Positions 1-12,524 of a stretch of DNA of 64,000 nt are shown one piece after another. Numbering within the stretch: position 1 is the stretch's first letter; every line of letters begins with the position of its first letter. This DNA comes from an uncultured Candidatus Saccharibacteria bacterium. GTDB lineage: Bacteria; Patescibacteriota; Minisyncoccia; Phycocordibacterales; UBA12088. The notes under the pieces are model-generated. The model made no database searches. It had not been told where the DNA came from and saw only the letters and a list, made by a program, of their open reading frames with translations. Location: contig CAZMLK010000001.1 of the NCBI GenBank assembly GCA_964567265.1, positions 331,723 through 395,722 of the forward strand, read 5' to 3'. The position numbers were made by a program, and so were the translations under genes.

Positions 1-393
1 GCGGAACTTTTCCTCCAGGTGCGTCTCAGCCGCAAGATCGCGGCCGATTCGAATCACCGCCTTTCTGAGGCGTCCGTGTGGCAGATTATTCGCCACCTTC
101 TCACGAACCCTATACGGGTTGAGCACCACGGCGAGGAATGCCACGTCTACTTCGAAGGCTTGGTTTCCTATGCTGGTACGCTCGAGGACACGCTTCGCGA
201 CGTTCCCGCCGGTGCGCATATCCACCTTACGGAAAAGACTCTCTATGTATGCGCCGAGGCCATGAGCCGCATCCACGACTTCGTCGACCGTCATGGCGGC
301 GGCCTCATCATCCACGAGGCATTGGTTCCTTGTGGAAATAAAACCACTTCGGCACGTCGGTTTACTCCCGGTGTCGCCGAAAGCTTTGCCTAA
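1..393 (+). CDS. hypothetical protein (possibly 5'-partial; GTG at 19 is first possible start)
   Basis: Frame 1 is open from base 1 to stop at 391-393; no recognisable family motif; followed by hairpin + T-tract. Confidence 0.4.
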   Translation, partial: AELFLQVRLSRKIAADSNHRLSEASVWQIIRHLLTNPIRVEHHGEECHVYFEGLVSYAGTLEDTLRDVPAGAHIHLTEKTLYVCAEAMSRIHDFVDRHGGGLIIHEALVPCGNKTTSARRFTPGVAESFA

Positions 394-641: not shown

Positions 642-673
642 GTCGGGGTGTAGTACAGGGGTAGTATACACGC
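642..673 (+). repeat. 32-nt direct duplicate of tRNA-Pro 5' half (acceptor 5' strand + D arm + 5' anticodon stem)
   Basis: GTCGGGGTGTAGTACAGGGGTAGTATACACGC occurs identically at 642-673 and 691-722; second copy is the 5' part of the intact tRNA. Confidence 0.9.
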
Positions 674-692
674 GCGGGGTTGGATTTTGTGT

Positions 693-763
693 CGGGGTGT
701 AGTACAGGGGTAGTATACACGCTTCGGGTGCGTGAGACCCGAGTTCGATTCTCGGCACCCCGA
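693..763 (+). tRNA. tRNA-Pro (anticodon CGG)
   Basis: Acceptor CGGGGTG/CACCCCG (C1:G72 as in bacterial tRNA-Pro), D stem GTAC/GTAT, anticodon loop TTCGGGT (CGG, G37), T loop TTCGATT, discriminator A. Confidence 0.85.
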
Positions 764-777
764 CACAAAATCTAACC

Positions 778-797
778 AAAAGTCCTGCGGACTTTTG
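778..797 (+). terminator. rho-independent terminator after tRNA-Pro
   Basis: AAAAGTCC-TGC-GGACTTTT perfect 8-bp stem with U-tract. Confidence 0.6.
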
Positions 798-803
798 CGG
801 CAT

Positions 804-861
804 GTCGGAAGAGAGACCTGAGTTCCATTCTCCTACGAGAGGACAGGCCGGCACTCCGACA
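804..861 (+). pseudogene. decayed tRNA-Pro-like remnant (internally deleted copy)
   Basis: GTCGGAAG..GAGACCTGAGTTCCATTCTC..insert..GGCACTCCGACA parallels tRNA-Pro acceptor 5' strand and GAGACCCGAGTTCGATTCTCGGCACCCCGACA 3' half, with point changes and a ~17-nt insertion; D and anticodon arms missing. Confidence 0.5.
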
Positions 862-1034: not shown

Positions 1035-1109
1035 CCGAGCAAGGCGAGGTACTGAGGGGGGGACGGCCGGAAGGAAATCTCCCCCGGACATTTTCTGGAG
1101 AATCAGTAT

Positions 1110-7782: not shown

Positions 7783-9357
7783 ATGTCACACACCACACTC
7801 ATCGAGCGGCTCAAGAAGGAAATCGACGGTTTCGTCCCGGACGGAGCGTCCGAGAATGTTGGTCGTGTCACCGCGGTCGGCGACGGGATCGCGGAAATCA
7901 GCGGTCTTTCGAATGCGGTCATGTCCGAAATGATCATCTTCGATGATTCGAGCGATAAGTCTCTTGCAGAGGCGACGAACGCGAGCGATCCGATCTACGG
8001 ACTTATTTTGAATCTTGAAGAAGACGTCGTCCGCGCCGTCATCCTTGGAGAGACGCGCCGCGTGCGCGAAGGCATGCTTGCGAAATCAACCGGCAAGGTG
8101 CTCTCGATTCCTGTTTCAGACGAGCTCCTCGGCCGTGTCGTTGACCCCTTGATGAATCCGATTGACGGCAAGGGCGCGATCAAGGCGGACAAGTGGAATC
8201 CGGTCGAGCGCGTCGCGTACGGCGTCATCGAGCGAAAGTCGGTGGATACGCCGCTTCACACCGGCATCAAGGCAATCGACGGCATGGTCCCGATCGGCCG
8301 CGGCCAGCGCGAACTCATCATCGGCGACCGCTTCACCGGAAAGACTACGATCGCGATCGATACCATCCTCAATCAGAAGAGCGAGCCGGAGGGGTCGCGC
8401 CCGATCTGTATCTATGTCGCGATCGGTCAGAAGGAATCCAAGACCGCCCAGCTCGTCGGGCTTCTCAAGGAGCGCGGCGCGATGGACTACACGATCGTGG
8501 TGTCCGCGCCGGCGTCGGCCCCAGCGGCACTCCAATTCCTTGCCCCATTCGCCGGCGCCGCTGTCGGAGAATATTTCATGCAGAAAGGGAAGGATGCGCT
8601 CATCATCTACGATGACCTCTCGAAGCACGCGATTGCGTACCGCCAGATGTCGCTCCTCCTTCGTCGCCCACCAGGACGCGAGGCATATCCGGGAGATATT
8701 TTTTACCTGCACTCACGCCTCCTCGAGCGTGCCGCGAAGCTTTCCGATGCCCTCGGCGGCGGCTCTCTGACCGCACTTCCGATCATCGAGACGCAGGAAG
8801 GTGACGTGTCCGCGTACATCGCGACCAACGTGATTTCGATCACGGACGGGCAGATTTTCCTCGTGACCGATCTTTTCAACAAAGGCATGCGCCCGGCAAT
8901 CGACGTCGGTATCTCCGTGTCGCGCGTCGGCTCAGCCGCACAGACAAAGGCGATGAAGAAGGTCGCTGGCAAGATCCGTCTCGAACTCGCGCAGTTCCGC
9001 GAACTCGAAGCATTCATGCAGTTCTCTTCCGATCTCGACGCGGGCACCAAGAAGCAGATCGACACTGGCATCCGCCTCACTGAGTCACTCCGCCAAGGCA
9101 AGAACATGCCGATCCCGTTCGAGAAGCAATCGGTGATCATCTACGCCGCAACCAAAGGATTCCTCGACACCGTCGCGGTCAAGGACGTCCTTCCTCTCGA
9201 GGAAAAGCTCTTCGCGTACCTTGAGCGTGAGCACGCGCATATCCTGAAAAACATCCGTTCGGAGAAGGCGATCTCTGATGCGACTGAGGCTGCGCTCACG
9301 GAGGCATTCGCGGGATTCAAGATCGCGCACGCTGAACTCTTCACAAGGACTCAATAA
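7783..9357 (+). CDS. atpA: F0F1 ATP synthase subunit alpha
   Basis: [18 protein letters not shown] Walker A, 524 aa, alpha-specific C-terminal region. Confidence 0.97.
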
Positions 9358-9366
9358 TATCCAAAC

Positions 9367-10179
9367 ATGAGTATCACGCAGAAGAAATTGTTCATCACGA
9401 GCGGATGTCTCTTTGCACTCATAATTGTTGCGGGATGTTACTTGATCGTGAGCGAAGCACGAACACGCCTTCTTTCGCAAGCAGAACTTGCGCGGTTGTC
9501 TACTGCTGATGAATCGGATGCGACTGTTGACTCTAGGTATACAGAGGGCGGCGGCGTATCGCGAAATACGCCAATGATGGAAGAGTATCTCAAAAGCATA
9601 CACGCAGCATACCTAGCAGAACCGAACGGCGCCTCAAAGGTGTATGTACTCCGCGACGGAAAAATTTATTTTGTCGCAAATCAGAACGTCGCCAACGAAA
9701 GCGGATTGAAGCAAATCATAGATGCGGATGCGAAATCGTTTACTGTGCTGTATGAGGCGGGGGAACATGATGCGTATGCAAAGGATGTGCATCATGCATA
9801 TTTTTTTGACAGGACCTTGCAAGGTGTCGATGCGGCCTCGTTTGAGCCGATTGTGTATTTCGGAAAGGAAGGAAACTCAACTTTTTTCAAGGACAAGAAC
9901 TACTTGTACAAGTGGAATGACGGAAAAACTGAATTTGCGCAGGTACCGAATGCGGACCCCGCAACCTTCACTCTCATTCCAAGCACTCGCATGACAGGTA
10001 ACGGTGAAGCCAACTATGCAAAAGACAAGAATCAGTTCTATTGCCAGGGAAATGTCAGCGTAATAGATCCTGCAACTGCTGTGGTGCACCCCATTGAGGA
10101 TACGAATACGGGCGGAGTGAATGACGAATACATTACGGATAAAAACGGTCAGTACTCAGGTACCTGCGTGAAAAAATAA
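9367..10179 (+). CDS. DKNYY-like repeat protein, N-terminal membrane anchor; inserted in atp operon
   Basis: N-terminal hydrophobic helix; 4-5 repeats of (Y/F)aKDKNy.Y..g...adpATF.l (FKDKNYLYKW, AKDKNQFYCQ, ITDKNGQYSG); markedly AT-richer than flanking atp genes. Confidence 0.7.
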   Translation: MSITQKKLFITSGCLFALIIVAGCYLIVSEARTRLLSQAELARLSTADESDATVDSRYTEGGGVSRNTPMMEEYLKSIHAAYLAEPNGASKVYVLRDGKIYFVANQNVANESGLKQIIDADAKSFTVLYEAGEHDAYAKDVHHAYFFDRTLQGVDAASFEPIVYFGKEGNSTFFKDKNYLYKWNDGKTEFAQVPNADPATFTLIPSTRMTGNGEANYAKDKNQFYCQGNVSVIDPATAVVHPIEDTNTGGVNDEYITDKNGQYSGTCVKK

Positions 10180-10186
10180 ATCGTAT

Positions 10187-12524
<2,338 letters not shown>

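Follow-up and report, generated by a model that had tools for sequence, protein, structure and literature searches.

Disrupted tRNA genes, whether intron-containing, split, or permuted, are textbook knowledge for Archaea and eukaryotes. In Archaea, the complementary sequences that join the 5' and 3' parts are 12-14 nt long, and the intron of pre-tRNA-Trp encodes a box C/D guide RNA. Integration into tRNA genes is also common, with anticodon stem-loops frequently serving as crossover cores; the phages and islands that target tRNA genes duplicate the 3' part, leave the copies kilobases apart, encode an integrase, and give tandem copies. MITEs, REP/REPIN sequences with their RAYT or IS200-like Y1 transposases, and 'Russian-doll' nested transposon insertions are further systems to be considered. 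The leader and trailer of rRNA operons form processing stems that are cut by RNase III, and the rRNA genes of CPR bacteria contain ORF-less insertions. Many insertions in CPR rRNA genes are unexplained. CPR rRNA introns are mentioned in PMC10714607. The disrupted tRNA genes of Archaea comprise intron-containing, multi-intron, and split genes (Nanoarchaeum equitans, Caldivirga, Thermoproteales; PMC4033280). All tRNA introns known from Bacteria are group I ribozymes, located in anticodon loops (tRNA-Leu(UAA), tRNA-fMet of cyanobacteria), mostly at 37/38 (PMC4033280).

In the present study, we analysed a tRNA-Pro locus in a 64-kb stretch of a 622-kb CPR genome; the whole stretch is referred to as the window. 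We confirmed, as facts of the sequence, that a complete tRNA-Pro gene sits in the anticodon loop of an older tRNA-Pro gene that is broken. No description of such a nested tRNA-in-tRNA layout was found in the full-text literature that could be searched.

The nest is located on the plus strand in a tRNA cluster (537-1036; ARAGORN and Rfam), between tRNA-Ala(GGC) (537-608) and tRNA-Val(CAC) (875-949), the latter being followed by tRNA-Ala(CGC) (962-1036). The outer gene, designated here as the shell, begins with a leader strand, TTGAACCCTTTGT (631-643), which was recognized from an inverted repeat, from pairing in a fixed register, and from the computed fold, where it forms the outermost helix with its partner at 859-871. 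In this register, 12 of the 13 positions are paired (11 Watson-Crick pairs and one G-U pair), for which we estimate a chance probability of about 7e-5 (0.375 per position). The 5' part of the shell (644-680, tRNA positions 1-38) consists of the acceptor 5' strand, the D arm, the anticodon-stem 5' strand CACGC, and the mutated loop GCGGGGT. The leader of the inner gene, GGTTGGATTTTGTGT (678-692; inverted repeat and alignment), starts within the shell anticodon loop and is the 5' strand of a helix that we call the clamp. It is followed by the intact tRNA-Pro(CGG) (693-763), by the 3' strand of the clamp, made up of discriminator A73 and the trailer (ACACAAAATCTAACC, 763-777; inverted repeat and alignment), and by hairpin A (AAAAGTCC-TGC-GGACTTTT, 778-796), which was found in the fold and lies where the relatives have their covarying hairpin A. 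The degenerate 3' interior of the shell (797-851), read from the sequence, leads to the acceptor 3' strand CACTCCG (852-858), discriminator A859, and the trailer (859-871), as deduced from the inverted repeat and the fold. This shell 3' end (852-871) lies directly 5' of tRNA-Val, like the plain tRNA-Pro of the relative L011.

The direct repeat is exact over 33 nt (641-673 = 690-722), comprising the last three leader bases (TGT) and tRNA positions 1-31, and extends at 93% identity to 40 nt (641-680 versus 690-729). The homology ends exactly where the anticodon loop ends, and the sole differences are three adjacent loop bases (GCGGGGT versus TTCGGGT). Only 16 nt separate the repeats, and the window has two occurrences of the 20-mer GTAGTACAGGGGTAGTATAC, for which 0.00 were expected. 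Two inverted repeats are nested in each other: 678-699 with 756-777 (22 nt, 95%) and 631-650 with 852-871 (20 nt, 85%). In the RNA fold of 625-875, which contains the nested structure, the z score was -7.2, and none of 200 shuffled sequences folded as well. Because the acceptor strands and 13-nt flanks of the upstream half and the downstream remnant pair at 19 of 20 positions and enclose the intact gene, the two pieces belong together; as judged from these pairings, a single older tRNA-Pro gene was split into the upstream half (644-680) and the remnant (approximately 797-858). A previous reading made from the sequence only had listed three rearrangement products at this locus. The rearrangement itself is borne out by the repeats and the fold, and all three objects are present, yet they are two things, a shell in two halves and an intact gene, rather than three independent products. 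The upstream copy, given there as 32 nt, is indeed exact, but the distance from it to the inner gene is 19 nt (674-692), not 17.

The shell of the window is decayed. Its anticodon loop, GCGGGGT, has no U33. Behind hairpin A, T796-G799 (TGCG) may be a relic of positions 38-41, 801-813 is filler at the place where the relatives have hairpin B, 814-817 (AGAC) is the variable region, 818-833 is a relic of the T arm with three of five stem pairs and the loop TTCCATT, and 834-850 is a 17-nt insertion. Counted by hand base by base, 811-833 matches positions 41-64 of the intact tRNA at 19 of 23 positions, and 851-861 matches the acceptor 3' strand plus ACA at 10 of 11. Thus, U33, two T-stem pairs, and most of the anticodon-stem 3' strand are missing from the shell, and the insertion has been added to it. 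The earlier description of a decayed tRNA-Pro 3' part with a 17-nt insertion was correct for 811-861, whereas its 'acceptor 5' strand' at 804-811 is only a match to TGTCGG; likewise, hairpin A, which had been taken for a terminator, did not score as a plus-strand terminator. An intron-containing or permuted tRNA, proposed there as an outcome to look for, was not called in the window, since ARAGORN in intron mode (-i 0-400) returned only four plain tRNAs; in a relative, the same mode reports the corresponding outer gene as an intron-containing tRNA. The shell is degenerate, and in the window only the inner tRNA can be functional. The 5' half of the shell shows no change in 30 nt, and the 3' half has about five substitutions and two indels; this unequal divergence means that gene conversion or selection must be invoked. 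The identity of both 5' halves would be best explained by gene conversion between the direct repeats, which are 49 bp apart.

The inserted module of about 119 nt (678-796) splits the shell after anticodon-loop position 37/38 and consists of the 15-bp leader/trailer clamp, the complete tRNA-Pro(CGG), and the 3' hairpin (778-796). The inner gene (693-763/764), already recognized as intact from the sequence, was called by ARAGORN and scored 60.6 bits with RF00005 (gathering score, 29 bits). It has the features of a canonical bacterial tRNA (model-scored cloverleaf, U33, and a purine at 37), has no encoded CCA, and is identical at 71 of 71 positions to the tRNA of L001, L002, and L011; the same 71-nt tRNA-Pro(CGG) is present in Paceibacteria and Saccharibacteria. 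The clamp prolongs the inner acceptor stem and is paired at 13 of 13 positions in the window. The trailer and hairpin A of the window are homologous to the trailer and terminator palindrome of a plain gene, L009 (alignment score 48, versus 23 +/- 5.7 in shuffled sequences, none of 300 reaching it). A search with cmscan and Rfam 15 (the window at E <= 10 and seven nest loci at E <= 0.1) gave only tRNA and chance matches, with no group I or other intron or ribozyme family. The canonical hairpin-A motif CGG-N6-loop-N6-CCG-NGG was found only directly behind tRNA-Pro trailers; no copy of this canonical form, from which the hairpin of the window diverges, occurs in the 64 kb, and scans of viral contigs gave no match for the tRNA or hairpin A.

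Comparison with the tRNA-Pro loci of relatives had been suggested by the sequence-only reading. At tRNA-Pro loci of Paceibacteria-like and Saccharibacteria CPR, the nested layout recurs in at least eight other lineages of these ultra-small bacteria (L005, L007, L008, L003, L024, L025, L026, and L030), with as many as three layers, and in one case it involves tRNA-Val. The order in this family is the shell 5' part to G37, leader, inner gene (possibly itself a nest), trailer, hairpin A, a 3-nt linker, hairpin B, and the shell 3' part. L026 contains a fully mirrored triple nest with all acceptor stems paired 7/7 and, in addition, a tRNA-Val nested within tRNA-Val. Homology between shell and inner gene ends at 37/38 in the window, L005, L007, L008, L024, L026, and L030. 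A repeated (C)GTG ... (T)GTG flanks hairpin B in every nest, and no clean target duplication was seen at the G37 junction. Plain genes occupy the corresponding positions elsewhere: in L011 (84% identity in the Tag protein), an identical, plain tRNA-Pro directly precedes tRNA-Val, and the response-regulator locus, which carries nests in L007, L008, L024, L026, and L030, holds a plain Val-Pro pair in L028. No tRNA lies near the Tag homologue of L013 (76% identity), and the ORF upstream of the cluster (window 1-393) gave no homologues at E <= 1e-10. Several relatives have intact shells, which are 91-94% identical between lineages with saturated synonymous sites (fourfold identity 17-42%), with the changes lying within loops or being wobble-compatible; the outermost shells carry the anticodon TGG in seven lineages, and further insertions in nests lie in D, T, or variable loops, not in stems. 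Other shells are broken: L022 is without hairpin B and the T arm, L007 has a D-arm deletion at level 1, and the acceptor strands of L003 are mismatched. The comparative sample is small and biased, as it was seeded by an exact 20-23-mer of this tRNA, and all its loci are from metagenome assemblies.

The clamp is conserved as a pairing. In nine tRNA-Pro(CGG) cassettes, 11-13 of 13 positions are paired, whereas most of 33 other tRNAs in the same loci reach 4-9 of 13 flank pairs at the best of 12 registers; two plain tRNA-Pro(CGG) genes (L004 and L006) have 10 of 13. In an alignment of 12 cassettes, 94.7% of the cells are paired and 14 of 15 flank pairs are changed on both sides. None of 500 shuffles matched these values, and sliding the partner reduced pairing to 36-45%. 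The clamp ends are always complementary, yet at least seven different sequences occur across the cassettes. For hairpins A and B together, 99.1% are paired and 12 of 16 pairs are changed on both sides (0 of 500 shuffles). G-T outnumber A-C mismatches in the helices (10 versus 5), a difference too weak to separate RNA from DNA structure.

We consider it probable that one old tRNA-Pro gene (631-680 plus 797-871) was interrupted after 37/38 by a self-contained module of about 119 nt that belongs to a recurring CPR family. The nesting, its recurrence in up to three layers, the covariation of clamp and hairpins, and the plain genes at the same positions in relatives are direct observations. The module would be a small non-autonomous mobile cassette or an intron-like element that moved into a cognate tRNA gene already resident there. 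The shell promoter may drive transcription of the whole unit, the clamp could keep the inner cloverleaf apart from the near-identical shell half, and RNase P and a 3' endonuclease would release the inner tRNA, possibly preceded by an RNase III cut in the 22-bp duplex. In favour of this reading, a scan of 50 ORFs of the window with Pfam gave no integrase, transposase, or reverse transcriptase. Counting against it, the clamp sequences vary between loci, unlike the terminal repeats that a transposase recognizes, no clean target-site duplication was seen at the nests, the canonical hairpin-A motif has no second copy in the window, the halves of the window shell have diverged unequally, and the comparative sample is small and biased. 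Two further ideas were tried and rejected. Leader and trailer as a target-site duplication show direct similarity in L001 only, and that sequence is palindromic. Two deletions in a tandem Pro-Pro-Pro array do not account for the outer halves, whose acceptors match each other (L005 and L026), or for a junction that recurs at G37 with unrelated leader sequences.

Purely local accidents would need no element: replication slippage or a 49-bp tandem duplication would be joined by a separate tandem copy downstream with an internal deletion. Repeats spaced 49 bp apart are typical of slippage, and TGTCGG at 803-808 looks like the beginning of an acceptor strand. Such events predict neither the pairing of 631-643 with 859-871, nor an end of homology exactly at the anticodon loop, nor the recurrence of the layout with different sequences in other lineages, and the covariation already observed contradicts them, so that we regard this explanation as improbable. 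Still less credit can be given to the model first proposed for this locus, in which an integrase repeatedly inserted and removed elements at an att site in the tRNA and left scars. Anticodon stem-loops and tRNA genes are commonly targeted, breakpoints within tRNAs exist in relatives (a swapped tRNA 5' half in L023), and an IS30-like rve gene lies near the L022 nest and Y1_Tnp genes near the Pro cluster of L002. However, there is no integrase among the 50 window ORFs scanned, the repeats are only 16 nt apart, and the repeated part is the 5' one (positions 1-38), which had rightly been remarked on as unlike an att duplication. A crossover in the anticodon loop yields tandem hybrid genes, so the nested topology already contradicts this model, which also leaves the outer leader/trailer complementarity and the covarying hairpins at fixed positions unexplained. 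An assembly artefact from repeated tRNA halves is hardly credible: a Logan assembly of the same organism (L010) ends within the adjacent tRNA-Ala, and the locus shows an N gap in L019 and an inverted contig end in L020, but the 33-nt repeat is shorter than usual assembly k-mers, nests come from many samples and several assemblers, and the triple nest is identical, base for base, in records from separate sources (L014 from ENA and L015 from NCBI). The L007 triple nest is found under four record names from four sources, L007 and L016 being the same JGI contig.

It is unlikely, though a more serious rival, that a live tRNA-Pro gene carries the module as an intron at 37/38 and that the window holds a recently inactivated example. 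RNase P and RNase Z would free the inner tRNA, the clamp would hold the shell halves, and trimming and ligation would follow, much as in the split and intron-containing tRNAs of Archaea, though here the host is bacterial and no group I core is involved. The site 37/38 is the canonical one for tRNA introns (PMC4033280). Joining G37 to the base before the conserved TTGTG gives a canonical tRNA-Pro that ARAGORN can call in L007 level 2, L026 levels 1 and 2, and L024, a D-loop or T-loop insertion also having been removed by hand in L026 level 1 and L024. The L026 shell change of G30 to A gives a perfect 5/5 stem with TTGTG. The conservation of the shell modules despite saturated fourfold sites, the TGG anticodon of outermost shells (an isoacceptor expected to be essential), and the confinement of extra insertions to loops point the same way. 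On the other hand, the shell of the window is unable to fold as a tRNA, and those of L022, L007 level 1, and L003 are broken too. There is no bulge-helix-bulge; on inspection, the predicted 3' junction of L026 lies in a continuous 9-bp helix (CACAATTCG/CGAATTGTG), with two hairpins intervening. No Rfam intron or ribozyme family matches, and neither a splicing endonuclease (EndA) nor RtcB is among the 50 ORFs scanned in the window, which is about 10% of the genome. Introns would not demand the strict Pro-in-Pro and Val-in-Val pattern, and CGG within CGG is redundant. The intact shells count, in turn, against the interruption of an old gene as the whole explanation, as a dead relic would not predict such conservation in several relatives; being far more conserved than neutral DNA, they keep a tRNA-containing intron a live alternative to a mobile cassette. 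With some doubt, we think it possible that all layers are live genes in the well-preserved relatives, and were so in the window lineage until recently. In that case, two or three concentric tRNA genes would be transcribed as one precursor, the innermost tRNA would be released, the leftover clamp and hairpin sequence would be removed at 37/38, and the outer tRNA would be rebuilt. This would be a non-group-I tRNA intron carrying another tRNA, with an archaeal-split-like splicing and ligation pathway not known in Bacteria.

The nest represents either a new kind of small mobile cassette, which takes the place of the gene that it disrupts, or evidence of a new tRNA excision and ligation pathway in CPR bacteria. 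Either reading bears on the movement of tRNA genes between genomes and on whether split tRNAs are ancestral or derived. As tRNA finders report the innermost gene only, the tRNA complements of CPR bacteria may be counted too low or wrongly, and nested tRNA loci tend to interrupt assemblies.

Among the known systems, tRNA-targeting integrative elements share with the nest the tRNA gene target and the partial tRNA copies left behind, but the nest has no 3' duplication, no kilobase spacing, no integrase among the 50 window ORFs scanned, and no tandem copies. Like MITEs and REPINs, the nests are small, have no ORF, combine terminal inverted complementarity with hairpins, and insert self into self, and a Y1_Tnp gene lies beside one Pro cluster (L002); unlike them, they conserve the pairing of the clamp rather than its sequence, show no clean target duplication at the G37 junction, have no second copy of the canonical hairpin-A motif in the window, carry a tRNA gene, and target the cognate tRNA. 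The clamp resembles the rRNA processing stems in being a long duplex of sequences that flank a structured RNA, although it flanks a single tRNA and its cleavage by RNase III is only proposed; in CPR rRNA genes, too, many insertions are tolerated or removed. Group I tRNA introns are likewise bacterial insertions in the anticodon loop next to 37/38, but the nests have no Rfam match, and their non-tRNA part of about 70 nt is short beside a catalytic core, which has about 100 nt and some 10 helices. The archaeal pre-tRNA-Trp intron offers a second functional RNA inside a tRNA intron, released from the same precursor (splicing of the nest being hypothetical); the cargo of the nest is a tRNA of the same amino-acid family, and the domain differs. 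The disrupted tRNA genes of Archaea are also interrupted at 37/38, with extra insertions in D and T loops, their 5' and 3' parts are joined by short complementary sequences (in the nests, a clamp of 13-15 bp that covaries in 12 cassettes), and similar insertions in different tRNA genes suggest mobility. The nests differ from them in their bacterial host, in having no bulge-helix-bulge and no splicing endonuclease known or seen, and in an intervening part that consists of a complete cognate tRNA with two conserved hairpins and is built up to three layers.

The tRNA cluster in the window comprises tRNA-Ala(GGC) (537-608), an intact tRNA-Pro(CGG) (693-763/764), tRNA-Val(CAC) (875-949), and tRNA-Ala(CGC) (962-1036). 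A 33-nt sequence occurs twice without mismatch (641-673 and 690-722), and this direct repeat extends to 40 nt at 93%. It takes in tRNA positions 1-38 together with the three leader bases immediately before them, the homology ends where the anticodon loop ends, and the upstream copy differs from the 5' half of the intact gene only in three adjacent loop bases (GCGGGGT vs TTCGGGT). Downstream, 811-833 and 851-861, separated by a 17-nt insertion, match the variable region plus T arm (19/23) and the acceptor 3' strand (10/11) of the intact gene, respectively, by manual count. The half-copy, intact gene, and downstream remnant noted in the sequence-only reading were thus found again, although the first two are 19 nt apart rather than 17; its acceptor 5' strand at 804-811 is a mere TGTCGG match, and its terminator at 778-796 is a hairpin that received no plus-strand terminator score.

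A repeat finder revealed two nested inverted repeats that the same reading had overlooked. The inner one (678-699 with 756-777; 22 nt, 95%) consists of the acceptor stem of the intact tRNA and 15 bp of leader/trailer pairing. The outer one (631-650 with 852-871; 20 nt, 85%, or 19/20 counting G-U) consists of the half-copy and its own 13-nt leader, paired to the acceptor 3' strand and trailer of the downstream remnant. RNA folding of 625-875 gave the same concentric structure (-109 kcal/mol, z = -7.2; 0/200 shuffles as good). The 13 flanking positions of the outer pair are paired at 12 sites in a fixed register (estimated chance about 7e-5); therefore, a single gene, the shell (631-680 and 797-871), has the upstream half at one end and the downstream remnant at the other; these are not separate products among three rearrangements, as had been proposed. 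The intact gene, the leader/trailer helix extending its acceptor stem (the clamp), and the hairpin at 778-796 sit inside the anticodon loop of the shell.

To find related loci, we searched a 20-mer of the D arm in 185,579 genomes; it matched only three species, all of them CPR bacteria (L001 from Paceibacteria; L002 and L003 from Saccharibacteria). A degenerate 23-mer gave six metagenome contigs, and additional loci were reached through proteins adjoining the nests. The comparative set, seeded by an exact match to the window tRNA, spans about a dozen lineages; all its loci are metagenome assemblies, some visibly troubled at the nest (L019, L020), and the window is 10% of its source genome. Assemblies break or are misjoined at L010 1-60 (a Logan contig of the window's organism, starting within tRNA-Ala(CGC)), at L019 ~1700-1930 (an N gap across the 5' halves), and at the contig end of L020 (an inverted duplicate). 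An assembly artefact is nevertheless unlikely, because identical nests occur in records from separate sources: the three-layered L007 has the same sequence in JGI (L007 and L016, one contig), ENA (L014), and NCBI (L015) records, L014 and L015 being base-for-base identical.

Nests with CGG inside a TGG shell were found in L005, L008, and L030 (two layers). L026 has three fully mirrored layers, with acceptor stems all 7/7 and intact T arms; in the L003 nest, the 3' part is mismatched to the 5' part; and the nests of L024 and L025 have a large T-loop insertion in the shell. The order of parts is constant. The shell 5' part runs to G37; next come a leader of 12-15 nt, the enclosed gene or nest, and a trailer complementary to the leader. 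Hairpin A (a 9-bp stem, usually CGG...CCG, with a loop of 3 nt) and hairpin B (~7 bp) follow, joined by a linker of 3 nt that is usually TGG, and the shell 3' part (GTG-AGAC, T arm, acceptor 3' strand) comes last. In the window, hairpin A is unlike those of the relatives in sequence, and hairpin B is unrecognisable. At L026 1245-1517 (+), a tRNA-Val(CAC) is nested in the anticodon of a shell that is itself a tRNA-Val(CAC), of a different sequence type, with a 12-bp clamp (CCCGTTAGAAAT/ATTTCTAACGGG) and without hairpins A or B; therefore, nesting extends beyond tRNA-Pro.

Shells also carry insertions in other loops. T-loop insertions of 90-190 nt were seen in Pro and Val shells (L008 ~430-520, L007 2440-2625, L024, L025, L026 1412-1503); those of L008 and L026 have GGGGTCGCGAC ... 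GTTGTGACCGA in common, and those of L007 and L024 have the related motifs GTCGCGAC / CGCGACCCC. These insertions have the look of a second element family, insertional or intron-like, residing in tRNA genes. Hairpin insertions occur in the D loop of TGG shells: L008 (220-250), L026 (1540-1570), and L007 (2100-2135) contain CCCCG(A/G)TAGAA..CTTCTGACGGGG, where the L007 copy has T-A in place of C-G, a compensatory change, and L030 and L020 contain a different palindrome, CCTGCCTGCGCAGGCAGG.

Leader/trailer pairing reaches 11-13 of 13 positions in nine tRNA-Pro(CGG) cassettes. Most of the 33 other tRNAs at the same loci pair at 4-9 positions in the best of 12 registers; the plain tRNA-Pro(CGG) genes of L004 and L006 reach 10. 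In an ungapped alignment of 12 cassettes, 94.7% of clamp cells are paired and both sides have changed in 14/15 flank pairs, values reached by 0/500 shuffles; pairing falls to 36-45% once the partner is slid. One clamp position forms a series in related lineages, being T-A in L007, T.G in L020 and L024, and C-G in L026 and L030. Across seven modules, hairpins A and B have 99.1% of their cells paired, with both sides altered in 12/16 pairs. These data indicate that all three helices are maintained; among mismatches, G-T outnumbers A-C by 10 to 5, which is too weak to separate RNA from DNA structure.

Plain genes occupy the same positions in relatives. In L011, the nearest relative with data (84% identity in the Tag protein), Ala(CGC) and Val(CAC) accompany a plain tRNA-Pro(CGG), and neither half-copy nor remnant is present at the Pro locus; this tRNA-Pro lies directly 5' of tRNA-Val, the spot held by the shell 3' end in the window. 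A plain Val-Pro(CGG) pair stands at the response-regulator locus of L028, and the nests of L007, L008, L024, L026, and L030 start at or near this Pro position, the 2-nt Val-Pro spacer being alike in L026, L030, and L028. The innermost gene is intact in every nest, and outer layers are often damaged. In the L022 shell, both the T arm and hairpin B are lost; the outermost layer of L007 has a D-arm deletion and a T-loop insertion of ~190 nt. The window shell lacks U33, retains 3/5 T-stem pairs, contains the 17-nt insertion, has mostly lost the 3' strand of its anticodon stem, and is uncalled by ARAGORN in intron mode; it is clearly non-functional now.

The layered loci fit repeated entry of a small cassette into a cognate tRNA gene at its anticodon loop, which disables the gene and supplies its replacement, successive entries building decaying layers. 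The polarity of decay, the relatives with plain genes, the Pro-in-Pro and Val-in-Val specificity, and the redundancy of CGG-in-CGG layers favor such entry, and an intron would call for a splicing machinery not known in Bacteria; Rfam searches of the window and nest loci gave no ribozyme signature. The module also fits an intron-like insert in a live tRNA gene. Shell modules are 91-94% identical between lineages whose response-regulator fourfold sites are saturated (17-42% identity), their changes fall in loops or stay wobble-compatible, and the intergenic flanks appear, by eye, unrelated between loci. When G37 is joined to the base preceding the conserved TTGTG, a canonical, ARAGORN-callable tRNA-Pro results (in two constructs, a D-loop or T-loop insertion was additionally removed by hand). 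The G30 to A change in the L026 shell perfects the stem with TTGTG, the outermost shells of seven lineages have the anticodon TGG, and the remaining insertions lie in loops, not stems.

The trailer and hairpin A of the window align with the trailer and terminator palindrome of L009, which has a plain gene of this type (score 48 vs 23 +/- 5.7 in shuffles, 0/300). By this homology, the insert looks like a copy of an entire tRNA-Pro unit with its 3' hairpin. In L009 (reverse strand, 3' of tRNA-Pro), the trailer complement lies downstream, making a 23-bp terminator palindrome; in the window cassette (756-804 region) it lies, oppositely, upstream of the tRNA, and the cassette resembles the plain unit after circular permutation. 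An identical 71-nt tRNA-Pro(CGG) occurs in the window (693-763), L001 (3994-4064), L002 (623-693), and L011 (68-138), spanning Paceibacteria-like and Saccharibacteria genomes, and the Pro(TGG) and Pro(GGG) genes of L002 have a different backbone (acceptor stem, D arm) from its Pro(CGG), which suggests lateral movement of the gene by horizontal transfer.

Several neighboring genes deserve mention. At L002 800-2400, two identical tandem IS200-like Y1 transposase genes (Pfam Y1_Tnp, E = 3e-17) begin ~135 nt downstream of a Pro(TGG)-Pro(CGG cassette)-Pro(GGG) cluster, with REP-like repeats CCAAAGGTGTCAGG ahead of them; the encoded transposase might mobilise hairpins. L022 and L023 encode an identical response regulator; on the reverse strand, downstream of this gene, their sequences differ upstream of tRNA-Pro. 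The swapped 5' half of L023 creates an A5.C68 mismatch, which places a recombination breakpoint within the tRNA. In L022, an IS30-like rve gene is found ~700 nt away. In the window, the ORF immediately before the tRNA cluster (19-393) is unmatched in Pfam, and a search of 5.8 billion proteins gave no homologue at E <= 1e-10; it is either an orphan or no gene. Within the F-type ATP synthase operon (7783-12524), the expected gamma-subunit spot between alpha and beta is taken by a 270-aa ORF (9367-10179) that matches the DKNYY family, and no gamma-subunit family was reported for it.

The window locus has a nested anatomy, a clamp and hairpin at conserved positions, and an intact inner gene. The cluster is probably transcribed as one unit, because terminator-like hairpins are read at ~455-495 and ~1050-1095 (both uncalled in the plus-strand terminator scan). 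The 22-bp clamp-plus-acceptor duplex would keep the inner cloverleaf in register although an identical 5' half lies 49 nt upstream, and it may be cleaved by RNase III; tRNA-Pro(CGG) would be freed by RNase P and a 3' endonuclease, and the shell pieces would be thrown away. Gene conversion between the close direct repeats would best account for identical 5' halves beside a decayed 3' half, and, when such repeats recombine, shells would also be removed from their 5' end inward (compare L022).

Several known kinds of element do not match this arrangement. The integrase scar suggested earlier lacks a recombinase among the 50 ORFs scanned in the 64-kb window, and the duplicated half, spacing, and topology are all wrong. 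A bulge-helix-bulge intron was excluded by inspecting the L026 fold, and a group I intron by the lack of a match in the Rfam searches of the window and nest loci. A classical MITE is also rejected: the ends are complementary yet unconserved, a clear target duplication was not seen, and the window gave no second copy of the canonical hairpin-A motif. In full-text searches, nested tRNA genes and non-group-I tRNA introns in CPR bacteria were undescribed; a 2014 review of tRNA gene diversity, in which the word 'nested' is absent, gives group I introns as the only ones in Bacteria (PMC4033280).
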